Shown here: positions 3,118 through 10,152 of the stretch, piece by piece | Position numbering within the stretch: the stretch's first letter is position 1 | How the letters are laid out: each line of letters opens with the position of its first letter | Origin: a virus | Length of the DNA: 16,382 nucleotides | UHGV virus genome: UHGV-0181023 | Strand: one strand, 5' to 3' | The notes under the pieces: model-generated | What the model saw: the letters and a program-made list of their open reading frames with translations, nothing else | What the model was told of the DNA's origin: nothing | Databases searched by the model: none | Made by a program: the position numbers and the translations under genes

Positions 3118-3933
3118 TCACTCTCCTTTGATGCGAATGCCAGTAGCGCGGATTGCATCGATGACTTCAGAAACTTTGTATGCCATTACCGTTTGGTAAT
3201 CATCGTGAAAATCTGTTCGATGAAGCATGCTGCTACGTTCCGGGAGCGATATTTCCCGAGCATCCAGTTCCTTAACGCGCTCCTCCAGTTCGTAGACCCT
3301 GCATTGTTCTCTATCATCAATCAGATATAACCCAAGACATTCGCTTTCTACCCAACCGCCAAAATCATGATCGTAACGCTCACATGAAAACTCACCGTCA
3401 CCGTCCTTTGTTGGAATGGTGTAACTATCTAATGGGCCACCATATGTCGGCACATTTCCCAATGTTGGATGCTCAATCCACATGAAAAATGCACGTCCGG
3501 TTATTGGGCAAATATCTGGCCGCCATTGGTTACGAACAGCCTTGGTTTCGGATAATTCTTCAGCGTGTTGTTTTACTTCCTCAAGCTCAACTCTCAGCTT
3601 CCCAACCGTAAGAGCAATATCCTCGTTCTTCTGGTCGCGGCGTTTGATGTATTGCTGGTTTCTTTCCAGCTCATCCAGCAGCGCCAAGACGGTAGCCGGA
3701 TTGGCTGCAGCGATGAATTCAGCATTGGCCTGCTGTTCCATTTGGAAATCTTCATCGAAACCGCTTTCAGGATGCGCTCCTTCAATTCTGCAAATGGGAA
3801 TATATCCAGCAGCCTCGCGATGAATTAGCGCATCATCACCATCAAATCGGCCCGATCCATATTCGAGCGACCACTCACCACACGTTGCTTTCTCTGCCTT
3901 TTCACGCAGTGCCTGATAGTCAATCTTGCTCAC
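3118..3933 (-). CDS. Ead/Ea22-like protein (N-terminal coiled-coil region, unknown C-terminal domain)
   Basis: 271-aa ORF; GTG start with AAGGAGG 6-7 nt upstream; motif NAEFIAAANPATVLALLDELE recalled as typical of Ead/Ea22-like prophage proteins; lies in the ea region between int/xis and the immunity region. Confidence 0.65.
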   Translation of the reverse strand: MSKIDYQALREKAEKATCGEWSLEYGSGRFDGDDALIHREAAGYIPICRIEGAHPESGFDEDFQMEQQANAEFIAAANPATVLALLDELERNQQYIKRRDQKNEDIALTVGKLRVELEEVKQHAEELSETKAVRNQWRPDICPITGRAFFMWIEHPTLGNVPTYGGPLDSYTIPTKDGDGEFSCERYDHDFGGWVESECLGLYLIDDREQCRVYELEERVKELDAREISLPERSSMLHRTDFHDDYQTVMAYKVSEVIDAIRATGIRIKGE

Positions 3934-5717: not shown

Positions 5718-6083
5718 TTATTGCGCTAATTCTTTTTCGGCAGCAGCTTTTGTATACTCACATGCAAAATTCAGAATTTCGCTGCCGAGTGTTTTCGTTT
5801 CGTGATTACTGGACATATGTAATACCTGTGTTGCATGCAATAAATGATAAACATTTACCGCAAATGAATCAGGCTCCAGGCAAATGCCTTCGTAATTATC
5901 TTGCTGTGAGGTTGTTTCTGTCATTGCTCCTGAAGTGCATACGAGCCTGTTTTTGACAATTCTCTTTTCTCTAATCACTATATCGGCAACATCTATTGCC
6001 TTTACAACCTCCGGGAGAAGTTCCGGGTTTGTATAATCAAAGTCATCAACATGGAGAACAGTTATGTTTTCGAACTTTTTCAT
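5718..6083 (-). CDS. hypothetical protein, 121 aa
   Basis: ORF track; SD GAGGA 4 nt upstream of ATG at 6083; no family recognised. Confidence 0.7.
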   Translation of the reverse strand: MKKFENITVLHVDDFDYTNPELLPEVVKAIDVADIVIREKRIVKNRLVCTSGAMTETTSQQDNYEGICLEPDSFAVNVYHLLHATQVLHMSSNHETKTLGSEILNFACEYTKAAAEKELAQ

Positions 6084-6211
6084 GGTTTCCTCAGCTGACT
6101 TATATGTTCTGCTATATAGCGAGTCTCAGAAGTGTTTTCATATTAAGACTGTTTCCGCAATGATTGATAAAAATGTTCGCATGTACCTTGAAGGGCGAAG
6201 CGGCGATTATG

Positions 6212-6760
6212 TCACCATTGGTATTGGTTCTTCCGCAGAAGAGCTTCGCGAGATAAGGGGCAAACTTGTTGAGATGCGTCATGGTGTTGCTGCTCCTCAC
6301 TTTTTGGTTGCTCCGGAGGAGTAACCTCGCCAGTTAACAGCCACATCGGATCGCAGCCAAGAATATTTGCCAGTGGGATAAGCATACTGATGGTTGGTTC
6401 ATACTCTCCGCTCTCCCACTGAATGATGATTTCTTCATCGAGATCGAGCAGCCTGGCGAGTTCGGCGGTTGTTAAGCCGCAGGCTTCGCGTTGGGTGCGA
6501 AGGTTAACCAGCCAGCTTTTAGGGAAGGATTGTTTTTGTTGTGCAGGAGAAGCCGCAGATAGGGCATATTCATGGATAAATTCCATTACCTCAATGCCCA
6601 GTTCCTTTGAGCGAGCACAATCCAGAAGATGGAATGTGCGTACAGCACTTAGCAAATTTGCAATATTTAATGCAAAGGAATCAAGTTCTAAGCCTTCAAG
6701 CGTAACACAGCCGCAGTTGATAAAATTAGTTGTTTCTGGAGTTGCTTTTAGTGTCTTCAT
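6212..6760 (-). CDS. XRE-family helix-turn-helix protein, 182 aa, HTH in the C-terminal half with an unknown N-terminal domain
   Basis: Segment LRTQREACGLTTAELARLLDLDEEIIIQWESGEYEPTISMLIPLANILGCDPMWLLTG matches the XRE/Cro-CI HTH pattern; first gene downstream of a near-consensus promoter. Confidence 0.75.
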   Translation of the reverse strand: MKTLKATPETTNFINCGCVTLEGLELDSFALNIANLLSAVRTFHLLDCARSKELGIEVMEFIHEYALSAASPAQQKQSFPKSWLVNLRTQREACGLTTAELARLLDLDEEIIIQWESGEYEPTISMLIPLANILGCDPMWLLTGEVTPPEQPKSEEQQHHDASQQVCPLSREALLRKNQYQW

Positions 6761-6813
6761 ATACCCACCAACAATTTTAAATTGAATTTAATCAAGTTAT
6801 AATTGATGGCGCG

Positions 6814-6842
6814 ATATTATGCTTTGAGAAATAGGCTGTCAA
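6814..6842 (-). promoter_or_regulatory. near-consensus sigma70 promoter (pL-like) driving the leftward operon: -35 TTGACA, 17-bp spacer, -10 TAATAT
   Basis: On the minus strand TTGACA (plus 6837..6842) and TAATAT (plus 6814..6819) are 17 bp apart; flanked by AATTGATG motifs at 6801..6808 and 6848..6855 and a palindrome ATCAAGTTATAATTGAT at 6791..6807. Confidence 0.5.
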
Positions 6843-6870
6843 GAAAAAATTGATGTCGTGTGTTTTAGAC

Positions 6871-6894
6871 AGAAAAAAACGGGCAAAGCCCGTT
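6871..6894 (-). terminator. rho-independent terminator downstream of the repressor gene
   Basis: On the minus strand: hairpin ACGGGC-TTT-GCCCGT followed by a run of 7 T, 12 nt after the repressor stop codon. Confidence 0.65.
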
Positions 6895-6905
6895 AAAATC
6901 AAAGA

Positions 6906-7595
6906 CTAACCAAATCTGTTTATATTGAATGGTACTGATGAGATCACTTTAGACTGGATATAAAGCAGAGCTAACCCCTCTTTTTCGATGCTCCATGGTT
7001 GATAATTGGGGTTATCAGATAACACCATGATTTTGCTTCCAATTTTTTGAAGTCTTTTCACGTAGCATTCTCCATCAAAACAAAATGCATAAATGCCATC
7101 GCCATCAAAATAAGTTACTGTCTTATCAAGAAAAAGAAGGTCGCCAGGTGAGATTGTGGGAGCCATACTGTCTCCTCTGGCGTTACCTATTTCTATATTT
7201 TTGAATGCCCGATTTCCAACAAGGCGTCGGGCATATTCAGGATCAAGTTCTATTGAGCGCACTACATCTATCAAGTCACCACGGACATGAGTTCCATCAC
7301 CGCAACTAAACTCAACATCAAGGACATTAAACACGACGCTATCTGTTCTTGTCTGGTGTTTCTCTTGCGAGGAAAAGGTTGGTGAGGAGTCTTCACCTAA
7401 GAACCAGGATTGTGGATAACCGCTAATCTCGGATAAATGCGCGAGCTTATCACTCCGTGGAAATGTTTTTCCTGTTGTCCAGTACTGCACTGATTGCGCA
7501 CTCACACCTAACTTGCGGGCCAGTTGAGCCTGAGTCCATCCTTTTGCTTTCAGCATCGCGGCTATTCGATTTTCCGTGTTTTTGACGTTCTTCAT
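6906..7595 (-). CDS. cI: CI-type prophage repressor (N-terminal HTH, C-terminal LexA-like S24 peptidase domain)
   Basis: HTH GWTQAQLARKLGVSAQSVQYW; peptidase motifs GDSMAPT (Ser) and YVKRLQ (Lys); ORF track lists a TTG at 7601, ATG at 7595 preferred; divergent from the cro-like gene. Confidence 0.9.
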   Translation of the reverse strand: MKNVKNTENRIAAMLKAKGWTQAQLARKLGVSAQSVQYWTTGKTFPRSDKLAHLSEISGYPQSWFLGEDSSPTFSSQEKHQTRTDSVVFNVLDVEFSCGDGTHVRGDLIDVVRSIELDPEYARRLVGNRAFKNIEIGNARGDSMAPTISPGDLLFLDKTVTYFDGDGIYAFCFDGECYVKRLQKIGSKIMVLSDNPNYQPWSIEKEGLALLYIQSKVISSVPFNINRFG

Positions 7596-7728
7596 GACCA
7601 AATCCTGTGGGTTTCTTTACAAGGATAAATCTTTACTTGATTTTAGTGTATTCGATCCTTTTGCAACTTGCATGTTAATTTAAACTTGATGTATTCTTGA
7701 TTTATAAAGTTAATGTTGGTGCTTTGTT
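7596..7728. promoter_or_regulatory. immunity-region operator/promoter intergenic region (PRM/PR analog) with three direct copies of an ACTTGAT-type motif
   Basis: 133-bp AT-rich spacer between divergent repressor and cro-like genes; motifs at 7635..7642 (ACTTGATT), 7684..7691 (ACTTGATG), 7695..7702 (TCTTGATT); candidate PR elements TTGATG (7687..7692) and TAATGT (7711..7716). Confidence 0.6.
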
Positions 7729-8001
7729 ATGAAAGGAAATGATTACGACAAACTTCGTGCATTAATTGCGCAAAATGCCATAGCGCGAAATCTTGGTGTG
7801 ACGCCGCAAGCGGTGAATCAGTGGTTTTCAAAAAACACAATTCCTGCTCGTTTCGTTTTACGCGTATGTGAAGTAGTTGCATGGAAGGTCACGCCACATG
7901 GCTTAAGGCCAGATCTTTATCCTCACCCTGAAGATGGAATTCCTGATTCGTTACGCAAAATTTCAAATCCAAGCTTAGCGCACACAGAGGACGAGAAGTG
8001 A
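7729..8001 (+). CDS. cro: Cro-like regulator of the YdaS/Cro-CI HTH family
   Basis: 90-aa ORF divergent from the repressor; motif LGVTPQAVNQW...LRPDLY resembles Rac YdaS-type Cro analogs. Confidence 0.8.
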   Translation: MKGNDYDKLRALIAQNAIARNLGVTPQAVNQWFSKNTIPARFVLRVCEVVAWKVTPHGLRPDLYPHPEDGIPDSLRKISNPSLAHTEDEK

Positions 8002-8041
8002 TGGTGGTGATATGAGCGAAAAAATAACTATTAAATACGAT

Positions 8042-8064
8042 GGGGCAACCATTTCGATTGCCCC
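8042..8064 (-). terminator. candidate hairpin downstream of the 8072..8365 gene (weak terminator candidate)
   Basis: Inverted repeat GGGGCAA...TTGCCCC with 9-nt loop; a T-rich tract follows on the minus strand but about 15 nt away, so not canonical. Confidence 0.25.
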
Positions 8065-8071
8065 AATCACA

Positions 8072-8365
8072 TTAGCGTTCGCTGAGAAGTTGTTGGTAAG
8101 CCTTAAAGGATGCGAACTGCATTCTACCTTCGGCATTGATTCCAATGCCTTCGCTTGTACACCAGGTGATGAACTCGGCTGTATCCGCTTCAACTTTAAT
8201 AACTCGTTGCCCGCTTCTTTCGACACGCTTAATCAATTTTTCAGCGTCGTGTTTCCACTCGGTGTAACTGTCGGAGAGCACATCAGCATCAGTAAAAATA
8301 TTTTTGAGCTCATGATACTGAATCGCATCGCGAAACCAGAATAAACCAACGGCCTGAACTTTCAT
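8072..8365 (-). CDS. hypothetical protein, 97 aa, encoded opposite to the early-right operon (moron-like)
   Basis: ATG at 8365 with AAGGAGG 6 nt upstream; protein-like charged composition; competes with the overlapping plus-strand ORF 8012..8344. Confidence 0.55.
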   Translation of the reverse strand: MKVQAVGLFWFRDAIQYHELKNIFTDADVLSDSYTEWKHDAEKLIKRVERSGQRVIKVEADTAEFITWCTSEGIGINAEGRMQFASFKAYQQLLSER

Positions 8366-9215: not shown

Positions 9216-9414
9216 TCACTCAACATCAATAACGGGGAGCTGTTTCGCATAAAACGGCTCCGAAACATCCAAGAACAGTTCTAAAGATATCAGCAGCTAT
9301 ATGATCATTTCAAGACCAAATATTGATTCTGCAATTTCGGGACGTTACACTGTCTCTGCACCTTATAAAGCGGGTGCCGGGGGTCGCAGCCCGGAATTGT
9401 CAACGGCGATATAT

Positions 9415-9434
9415 GACGCGCCAGCGTCTTTTTT
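9415..9434 (+). terminator. terminator-like hairpin (GACGC-GCCA-GCGTC followed by T6) inside the spacer upstream of rha
   Basis: 5-bp GC stem, 4-nt loop, T6 run; within a frame that is open but looks non-coding. Confidence 0.3.
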
Positions 9435-9600
9435 ATCGTCCGCGCTCACGCACGCCAGAATTATGGTGGGCTGGGCAGGGGAGCCGAAAGGCTCGCCGGT
9501 CTCCGTTGACGCCGGTACTGCGAACCCTGTTCAGTCTGCCACCAGTGAGTTTCGCAGCTCCGGTGGTGGAAGTTTTCCACAGTCAACGGAGGCTGCCATC

Positions 9601-10152
9601 ATGGCTACGATCCCAACCCTCACTCAACCTGAAATTGCCATCGTTGATGGTCAGGCTGTTACTTCATCCCTGGCTGTTGCCAACTTCTTCTCCAAGCGTC
9701 ATGACGATGTACTGAAAAAGATCCGCACGCTTGAATGCTCCGCATCATTCACTGCCCGCAATTTTTCGGTGAGTGATTACACCGATTGCACAGGCCGCAA
9801 ACTACCTTGCTATCAAATCACCCGCGACGGTTTTGCGTTTCTTGCCATGGGCTTCACTGGTAAACGTGCTGCCCAGTTCAAAGAGGCATACATCAACGCC
9901 TTTAACCTGATGGAGAAGAGTTTATCAGGTGCCGATGCGTCTGATATGTCAGCTGTCGCACGAAACGCCAGAGGCGTATACCTGCATTTGCGTGAAATCC
10001 ATCAAATCTGGACAAGCCAGCTTTATCCAATGCTTAAGGCCGTTGAATCTCCGCTGGCTAGCAAACTGTACGACCGTGTTGGTGATGCTGTTTTTGGCGC
10101 TGCACTTGTTGATTCCAGGCTGAATGGTTCTGACAAGGAGGTTCGCCCATGA
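9601..10152 (+). CDS. rha: Rha family phage regulatory protein
   Basis: ORF-track frame 9301..10152; ATG at 9601 has GGAGG 8 nt upstream; product QPEIAIVDGQAVTSSLAVANFFSKRHDDVLKKIR...YQITRDGFAFLAMGFTGKRAAQFKEAYINAFN matches the Rha pattern; the 100 codons upstream are low-complexity G/S/A-rich. Confidence 0.8.
   Translation: MATIPTLTQPEIAIVDGQAVTSSLAVANFFSKRHDDVLKKIRTLECSASFTARNFSVSDYTDCTGRKLPCYQITRDGFAFLAMGFTGKRAAQFKEAYINAFNLMEKSLSGADASDMSAVARNARGVYLHLREIHQIWTSQLYPMLKAVESPLASKLYDRVGDAVFGAALVDSRLNGSDKEVRP

Follow-up and report, generated by a model that had tools for sequence, protein, structure and literature searches.

In the established picture of the phage lambda switch, operators and early promoters are arranged on both sides of the repressor gene cI, as a right control region (operators OR, promoters PR and PRM) and a left one (operators OL, promoter PL), and in phage P22 the left operator-promoter follows directly on the repressor gene c2, shares its reading direction, contains 18-bp operators and has the N-like gene 24 as its first gene. 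The features of the lambda switch are also summarised together with those of CP-933P, the PaaR2/YdaS/YdaT switch of E. coli O157:H7, whose leftward promoter PL933P was found by three operators like those of the divergent region and undergoes repression of about 100-fold by the CI analogue as well as by YdaS (PMC8630535). Among the Shiga toxin (Stx) phages, 933W possesses three OR and two OL sites and H-19B four OR sites, and the number and affinity of the operators have been linked, for 933W and lambda, to the readiness of Stx prophage induction (PMC8065619). The present analysis concerns a 16,382-bp stretch of the viral genome UHGV-0181023 (hereafter the window) and, specifically, the 145-bp spacer at 6761-6905 that extends from the stop of a cI repressor gene to the start of the first leftward open reading frame (ORF), which encodes a 182-amino-acid (aa) helix-turn-helix (HTH) protein.

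The order of the elements on the minus strand is cI, terminator, promoter and the HTH gene with its Shine-Dalgarno sequence, and the spacer has 32% G+C. The best explanation for this arrangement is that the spacer combines the terminator of the cI transcript with a repressor-controlled early leftward promoter-operator that would be the functional equivalent of the PL/OL of lambda and P22, a reading to which we assign a probability of about 0.83 and in which binding and regulation are predicted. Specifically, the promoter is located on the side of cI away from cro and points to the recombination and integration genes; it is a good sigma-70 promoter in silico and is overlapped by at least two operators of the consensus found in the cI/cro region; moreover, the operator sequence changes with the immunity type, not with the neighbouring genes. 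Conceptually, the region is the PL/OL to be expected of a lambdoid switch and holds no surprise. A preliminary description of the window had already proposed a shared repressor operator (an OL analogue) at this place, and the proposal gains in silico support from four independent lines, namely from the dyad common to both control regions, from its conservation, from its co-variation with CI and Cro, and from relatives that have the same CI and an unrelated downstream gene.

Candidate operators on both sides of cI

The preliminary description singled out TTGAT as an operator-like core, an octamer present on both sides of the promoter and a 17-bp palindrome overlapping the predicted transcription start. 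The octamer AATTGATG is indeed found at 6801-6808 and 6848-6855, and the palindrome ATCAAGTTATAATTGAT occupies 6791-6807, with both 5-bp arms perfect and 7/8 pairs complementary. The TTGAT core does recur in both regions, but it is the half-site of a 17-bp dyad with the consensus ATCAAGTTAAACTTGAT and not the operator itself. Similarly, the three TTGAT copies described for the cI/cro spacer are present (7637-41, 7686-90, and 7697-7701), but the last of them lies outside the conserved operators and was rejected as a half-site, having a matrix score of 2.3 and no conservation outside E. coli; the third right-hand site is instead found at 7704-7720 (ORc).

An operator matrix was built from the homologous sites of five relatives, with the window and its near-identical twin left out, and scanned over the whole 16.4-kb window. 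The six best matches are OL1, ORb, OL2, ORa, OL3, and ORc (Table 1), the best background site scores 8.8, and OL3 and OL1 are separated by 21 bp centre-to-centre. The pattern ATCAA-N7-TTGAT with at most one mismatch has three matches in 16,382 bp, all of them in the two spacers that flank cI, where 0.04 are expected locally; with at most two mismatches, six of the 19 matches of the window fall within these spacers against an expectation of 0.40, and none of 5000 simulations reached six (0/5000). Considered alone and at the same stringency of two mismatches, the leftward spacer has three matches against 0.23 expected (P = 0.003) and the cI/cro spacer, which was not used in choosing the pattern, three against 0.18 (P = 8e-4), the expectations being derived from first-order Markov simulations with each spacer's own A+T-rich composition. 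Other registers of the dyad (AAATC-N7-GATTT at 7627-7643, CAATTT-T-AAATTG at 6772-6784, and CTTGAT direct repeats 11 bp apart) were set aside because only ATCAA-N7-TTGAT recurs in both regions and across genera. A full-text literature search for the operator strings and one on phiP27, its repressor and its operator brought up no previous account of the operator sequences or of the immunity type.

The simulations bear on a different account, in which the promoter would be a constitutive element of the "moron" type, serving to express the HTH gene in the lysogen irrespective of CI, and the TTGAT repeats a by-product of the A+T-rich sequence. The low G+C content of the region, the succession of a terminator and a strong promoter, which is the usual shape of an autonomous cassette, and a promoter score that by itself is not highly significant would all suit such an element. 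However, local composition predicts far fewer sites than are observed in either region, the arms of the dyad are invariant across genera while the adjoining bases vary, the motif changes with the immunity type, and the sites lie over the -35 element and at +1..+17, which are repressing positions. The constitutive account is therefore left with a very small chance.

Table 1. Coordinates of the predicted control elements and of the genes that flank them in the window; positions with a sign are relative to the predicted leftward start unless otherwise given.
Feature	Position	Strand	Sequence or composition	Relative position	Matrix score (rank)	Remarks
Predicted -35 of the PL analogue	6842-6837	minus	TTGACA
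Predicted -10 of the PL analogue	6819-6814	minus	TAATAT			17-bp spacer from the -35
Predicted transcription start	6807	minus	A			7 nt after the -10, from the spacing rule only
OL1 (candidate operator)	6791-6807		ATCAATTATAACTTGAT (minus strand)	+1..+17	24.0 (1)	perfect arms, 0 mismatches
OL2 (candidate operator)	6838-6854		ATCAATTTTTTCTTGAC (minus strand)	-47..-31	20.6 (3)	1 mismatch; over the -35
OL3 (weak candidate)	6770-6786		AACAATTTTAAATTGAA (plus strand)	+22..+38	12.3 (5)	2 mismatches
ORa (candidate operator)	7625-7641		ATAAATCTTTACTTGAT		19.1 (4)	1 mismatch; nearest to cI; conserved; putatively OR3-like, over the PRM start
ORb (candidate operator)	7674-7690		GTTAATTTAAACTTGAT		21.9 (2)	conserved; putatively OR2-like
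ORc (candidate operator)	7704-7720		ATAAAGTTAATGTTGGT	putatively +1..+17 of PR	9.4 (6)	degenerate
Intrinsic terminator of the cI transcript	6878-6894	minus	7-bp G+C-rich stem, 3-nt loop			T7 tail at 6877-6871
Shine-Dalgarno of the 182-aa ORF	6764-6769	minus	GGTGGG	+39..+44		TGGTG conserved
Start codon of the 182-aa ORF			ATG	+48
182-aa ORF, first leftward gene	6212-6760	minus				N-terminal domain of unknown function and HTH_3; phiP27 L10 family; PHROG 4836 "CII-like regulator"
cI repressor, 229 aa	6906-7595	minus				Pfam HTH_3 (aa 13-54) and Peptidase_S24 (LexA-like, aa 141-208)
Putative PR	7668-7673 (-35); 7692-7697 (-10)	plus	TTGCAT, 18-bp spacer, TATTCT			TTGCAT invariant in all relatives; ORb fills the spacer
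Putative PRM	7673 to 7668 (-35); 7651 to 7646 (-10)	minus	ATGCAA, 16-bp spacer, TACACT
cro-like gene, 90 aa	7729-8001	plus				YdaS / P22_Cro-type HTH

Conservation of the sites and their likely binders

Nine relatives of the same CI type were examined, comprising phage and E. coli relatives and three non-E. coli loci (Pseudocitrobacter faecalis, an Enterobacteriaceae metagenome-assembled genome (MAG), and Citrobacter youngae) obtained from a scan of one genome per species. The same dyad is found at homologous places in both control regions of these relatives. The OL1 arms are invariant in all of them and located 6-7 nt after the -10 element every time, and OL2 is conserved throughout. In the alignment of the phage and E. 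coli relatives, the -35 element is invariant and the arms of OL2 and OL1 are kept, while divergence is seen in the promoter spacer, ahead of OL2 and where the downstream gene begins. The -35 and -10 elements and the two strong operators are thus preserved in six relatives that have otherwise diverged, spacer and flanks included.

Among the E. coli relatives, the motif is found together with CI and Cro and also with the downstream HTH protein, and it could be supposed that the promoter is autoregulated by the 182-aa protein, which would bind the TTGAT sites and also be the cause of the resemblance with the cI/cro spacer. The protein has a good HTH_3 domain, its gene accompanies the motif in every E. 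coli relative of the immunity type, and phiP27, which has the same HTH domain, contains TTGAT within a repeated TTGATAC. Phages of the phiP27 and ASU11 types have the same gene order as the window, with a CI and a Cro that are unrelated or distant, and their downstream HTH domain is 61% identical to that of the window in ASU11 (aa 49-143), 78% in phiP27 (aa 67-147), and 84-86% in other phiP27-type phages (aa 87-143), its recognition region being unchanged in phiP27 and ASU11. Yet these phages carry other dyads, namely GATAC-N4-GTATC in the phiP27 type (three left and three right sites) and AATAG-N6-CTATT in ASU11 (two left and four right sites); their representative loci lack ATCAA-N7-TTGAT at up to two mismatches and the three dyads show no cross-matches, the sole and weak departure being a two-mismatch ATCAA-N7-TTGAT in the OL of a second phiP27-type locus, Stx2_12E129y. 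Moreover, 7-mers common to a right and a left region are found mostly where the two are of one immunity type. The TTGATAC repeat of phiP27 was rejected as a sign of binding by the HTH protein, since the phiP27 dyad is GATAC-N4-GTATC and the operators persist without the HTH gene.

Conversely, the three non-E. coli relatives have a CI that is 74-79% identical, with the recognition helix kept, and a gene after cI that is unrelated to the 182-aa protein and without an HTH, and yet they keep OL1 and OL2. Specifically, the cI terminator is kept, ATCAAGTTTAACTTGAC lies over a TTGAC-type -35 element, and a perfect ATCAAGTTTAACTTGAT occurs exactly 47 bp beyond OL2, 6-7 nt after the -10 element. Their three right-hand sites are spaced 31 and 50 bp apart, versus 30 and 49 bp in the window, and the position of ORc shows 0-2 mismatches to the dyad. 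Because heteroimmune phages with a near-identical HTH domain carry other dyads, and because same-CI relatives with an unrelated downstream gene keep OL2 and OL1, the operators go with the CI/Cro pair rather than with the downstream gene, and autoregulation by the HTH protein is extremely improbable.

Within the CI/Cro pair, the operators might serve Cro only or chiefly, for the lytic shut-off of the promoter, with CI repressing the leftward operon otherwise, for example through looping from OR. Cro co-varies with the operators exactly like CI, and the YdaS-type Cro of CP-933P strongly represses PL933P; in the same system, however, both the repressor and YdaS repressed PL933P (PMC8630535). Strong sites over the -35 element and the start are also what lysogenic silencing needs, and a role confined wholly or mainly to Cro is very unlikely. 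To our knowledge, CI and Cro share their operators in every characterised lambdoid switch, which also counts against such a role, and by the same paradigm both CI and Cro would bind here.

Predicted leftward promoter and repressor terminator

Both the minus-strand promoter TTGACA-17-TAATAT and the repressor terminator just upstream of it, as reported in the preliminary description, are present in the spacer. The promoter agrees with the consensus at 10/12 positions, and matches of this quality number three in the whole 16 kb against 3.2 expected; the match being only modestly unusual, it is conservation that carries the argument. TTGAC of the -35 element is invariant in 9/9 relatives, and the sixth base is A in the phage and E. 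coli relatives and G or T in the three non-E. coli ones (TTGACA versus TTGACG or TTGACT), while the -10 element is TAATAT or TAACAT in the E. coli relatives and TATCCT or TACTCT, at the same place, in the non-E. coli ones. The position of the promoter is kept in all nine, and a simple scan gives 10/12 in the Stx2_14040 and phi467 subtypes. The phi467 subtype (locus L003, ~3440-3470; also L009 and L010) has a promoter spacer of 18 bp, not 17, with extra ATCAA half-sites (CCATCAATCAAGATC), and an ATCAAG upstream of OL2; all of these may be additional or alternative contacts of the repressor.

A plus-strand match, TTTAAA-16-TATAAT at 6776-6803, also reaches 10/12; its -10 forms the centre of OL1, its -35 falls within OL3, and the element faces the 3' end of cI. 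If this were the relevant promoter, its RNA would be antisense to the cI 3' end and the minus-strand match would be secondary, and an equivalent does occur in phi467. Its -35 element, however, is missing from the Stx2_14040 subtype and from the non-E. coli relatives, its TATAAT coincides with an A+T-rich operator centre, and no gene or Rfam family is found downstream on the plus strand, whereas the minus-strand promoter is conserved everywhere and is followed by a gene with a ribosome-binding site. The probability that the plus-strand element is the relevant one is close to negligible, and the match is probably a by-product of A+T-rich operator centres.

There is also little probability that the left region goes beyond a copy of the lambda OL, in the sense that PL and an anti-cI transcript would be activated together once CI is lost, as a commitment device based on convergent transcription; if the antisense element were real, this would be a device not described for lambdoid switches. 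OL2 and OL1, 47 bp apart, are on opposite faces of the helix, and at both early promoters an operator appears to occupy exactly +1..+17, after a 6-nt gap from the -10 element.

The terminator hairpin is located 11 nt past the cI stop and folds at -12.9 kcal/mol (z = -3.3). It is kept in PhiR49_2, Pseudocitrobacter, the Enterobacteriaceae MAG, and C. youngae, whereas the Stx2_14040 and phi467 subtypes (comparison loci L002 3451-3561 and L003 3386-3531) have unrelated sequence in its place; in these subtypes, transcripts from PRM may extend into the leftward operon if no bound CI stands in their way as a roadblock. Rfam has no family in 6761-6905, with just two matches far below the threshold.

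Proposed mechanism and points to be weighed

In the proposed mechanism, a strong sigma-70 promoter with a start near 6807 would drive the leftward early operon, composed of the 182-aa HTH gene followed by the ea22-like gene, xis, and int. When CI dimers occupy OL2 and OL1 in the lysogen, RNA polymerase would be kept off the -35 element and the start would be blocked, together with promoter escape, keeping the leftward genes off, and in the subtype of the window the terminator would keep PRM transcripts out of the leftward operon. Upon DNA damage and the SOS response, the LexA-like CI would cleave itself, leaving the operators empty and allowing the promoter to fire; at a later stage these sites would be taken by Cro, which would lower the activity of the promoter. 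The identity of the binders, the start site, and the direction of regulation are proposed by analogy with the known lambdoid switches.

Several points weigh against a PL/OL function of the spacer or narrow its reach. CI, Cro, and the operators are never found apart, so that the sequence by itself does not tell which of the two proteins binds, and for this immunity type CI/Cro binding, the transcript start, and the induction dependence are inferred. The dyad pattern was picked after OL1 had been seen, a concern that is softened by the OR region, which is independent, and by a matrix derived solely from relatives. Taken by itself, the promoter match is modestly improbable (P ~0.04 for 10/12 in the 145-bp region, on the coding strand and with local composition), and the -10 element is weaker in the non-E. 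coli relatives. OL3 is conserved in the E. coli subtypes and not in the non-E. coli relatives, while the spacing of OL2 and OL1 (47 bp, ~4.5 helical turns) compares with 23-24 bp in lambda, and any cooperativity may have another geometry than in lambda. Lastly, with the terminator missing from two subtypes, insulation from PRM does not extend to the whole group.

Model of the right-hand region

A simple scan of the cI/cro spacer gave no promoter match of at least 9/12, and the PR and PRM of Table 1 are modelled from conservation and geometry, with moderate to low confidence. In this model, ORc would start 6 nt after the -10 element of PR, the same gap that separates the -10 element of PL from OL1, while PRM would have ORb at about -43 and ORa over its start; in lambda, CI bound at OR2 activates PRM from the position equivalent to about -43. 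Alternatives to the modelled promoters exist, including a -35 element at TTGATG (7686-7691).

Flanking genes, relatives, and other features of the window

The repressor, annotated as cI in PhiR49_2 and in Stx2a phages, has the domain make-up of S24 phage CI repressors, with an N-terminal HTH and a C-terminal Peptidase_S24 domain. Its translation contains SCGDG, with a Cys-Gly candidate cleavage site, and GDSM and KR motifs that would be catalytic. It is at most ~37-40% identical to named lambdoid repressors such as HK022, and its sequence points to a distinct specificity.

The first leftward gene gives only HTH and regulator families in Pfam, PHROG, and NCBIfam, and no N-type antiterminator is annotated in related prophages (no nut-site search was made); because this gene encodes an HTH protein, the leftward operon would not be a lambda-type N operon. 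The N-terminal domain of the 182-aa protein (aa 24-70) is homologous to the C-terminal half (aa 69-115) of the product of the next-but-one leftward ORF, 5718-6083 (minus strand; phiP27 L08 family), with 43% identity over 47 aa (E = 2e-10). Neither the N-terminus of phiP27 L10 nor the genes downstream of cI in the non-E. coli relatives show similarity to it. This domain varies between immunity types, the HTH domain does not, and the homologue of some relatives has two HTH domains.

The window as a whole is E. coli prophage sequence, namely the early region of a lambdoid element of phiP27-like type. The phage PhiR49_2 (ECOR13) is 97.5% identical to it over 6100-7989, and a set of Stx2a-converting phages together with phi467 shows ~78-82% identity. 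The immunity region is found in 136/5,426 complete E. coli genomes and the immunity group also in several Stx2a-converting phages of O145:H28-type strains, with related forms in Citrobacter and Pseudocitrobacter. In a 99.9%-identical E. coli prophage (strain SCU-105), the leftward genes continue to an ea22-like gene, xis, and int and adjoin mlrA, while the rightward genes continue to Rha-type regulators, replication genes, and the Q antiterminator.

Beyond cro, two overlapping ORFs lie on opposite strands, at 8012-8344 (plus, 110 aa) and 8072-8365 (minus, 97 aa), and a strong 11-bp hairpin (8065-8041, minus strand) is located directly 3' of the latter. Their annotation differs, since PGAP places a minus-strand ORF in SCU-105 and a plus-strand ORF is annotated at the equivalent place in phi467; the plus-strand ORF 8012-8344 has no Pfam or PHROG match. 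Two Rfam matches above the gathering score, IsrK at 9358-9434 (plus, 58.7 bits) and the C4 antisense RNA of P1/P7-type immunity at 9459-9546 (plus, 78.8 bits), stand side by side in the 5' part of the ORF 9301-10152 (plus), which is a Rha-family phage regulator in the annotation of the SCU-105 prophage; they suggest that an antirepressor-like gene of the prophage is under a second control, based on RNA. A match to the small RNA STnc100 at 16202-16382 (plus, 132 bits) runs off the end of the window, downstream of the region annotated as a Q-family antiterminator in the near-identical prophage.

Implications and comparison with known switches

The operator consensus ATCAAGTTAAACTTGAT and a full set of candidate sites are now defined from the sequence for an uncharacterised immunity group that includes Stx2a phages. 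The consensus lets homo- and heteroimmunity among prophages be predicted and reporter and footprint experiments be designed directly, and the architecture of the switch, with two strong OL sites and an operator at +1, can be compared with those of 933W and lambda.

The locus resembles lambda in having 17-bp pseudo-symmetric operators that are common to the left and right regions around cI and overlap sigma-70 early promoters, a repressor composed of an HTH and a LexA-like S24 domain, three OR sites, and left and right operators less than 1 kb apart, so that CI-mediated looping is conceivable. It differs from lambda in the operator sequence (TATCACCGCCAGTGGTA in lambda versus ATCAAGTTAAACTTGAT here) and in the layout of the left region, where lambda has three sites 23-24 bp apart and the window has one site over the -35 element and one at +1..+17, 47 bp apart; moreover, there is no rexAB between cI and OL, and the first leftward gene encodes an HTH protein in place of N. 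The position of the left operator-promoter, directly downstream of the repressor gene and in the same reading direction, is that of P22, whereas the operators, the repressor, and the first gene of the PL operon differ from those of P22.

Like CP-933P, the window has a lambdoid switch with a Cro analogue of the YdaS family, and PL933P offers an experimental example of the layout proposed here (PMC8630535); CP-933P differs in its GTTTAGTAA half-sites and 18-bp palindromes, in the unrelated genes downstream of PL933P, and in PaaR2 being in an operon with a toxin-antitoxin pair. Lastly, 933W and H-19B have repressors and operator sequences that are unrelated to those of the window and use N antitermination, but in these early regions of Stx phages, too, operator number and arrangement depart from lambda, and the two OL sites of 933W are matched by the two strong OL sites found here.

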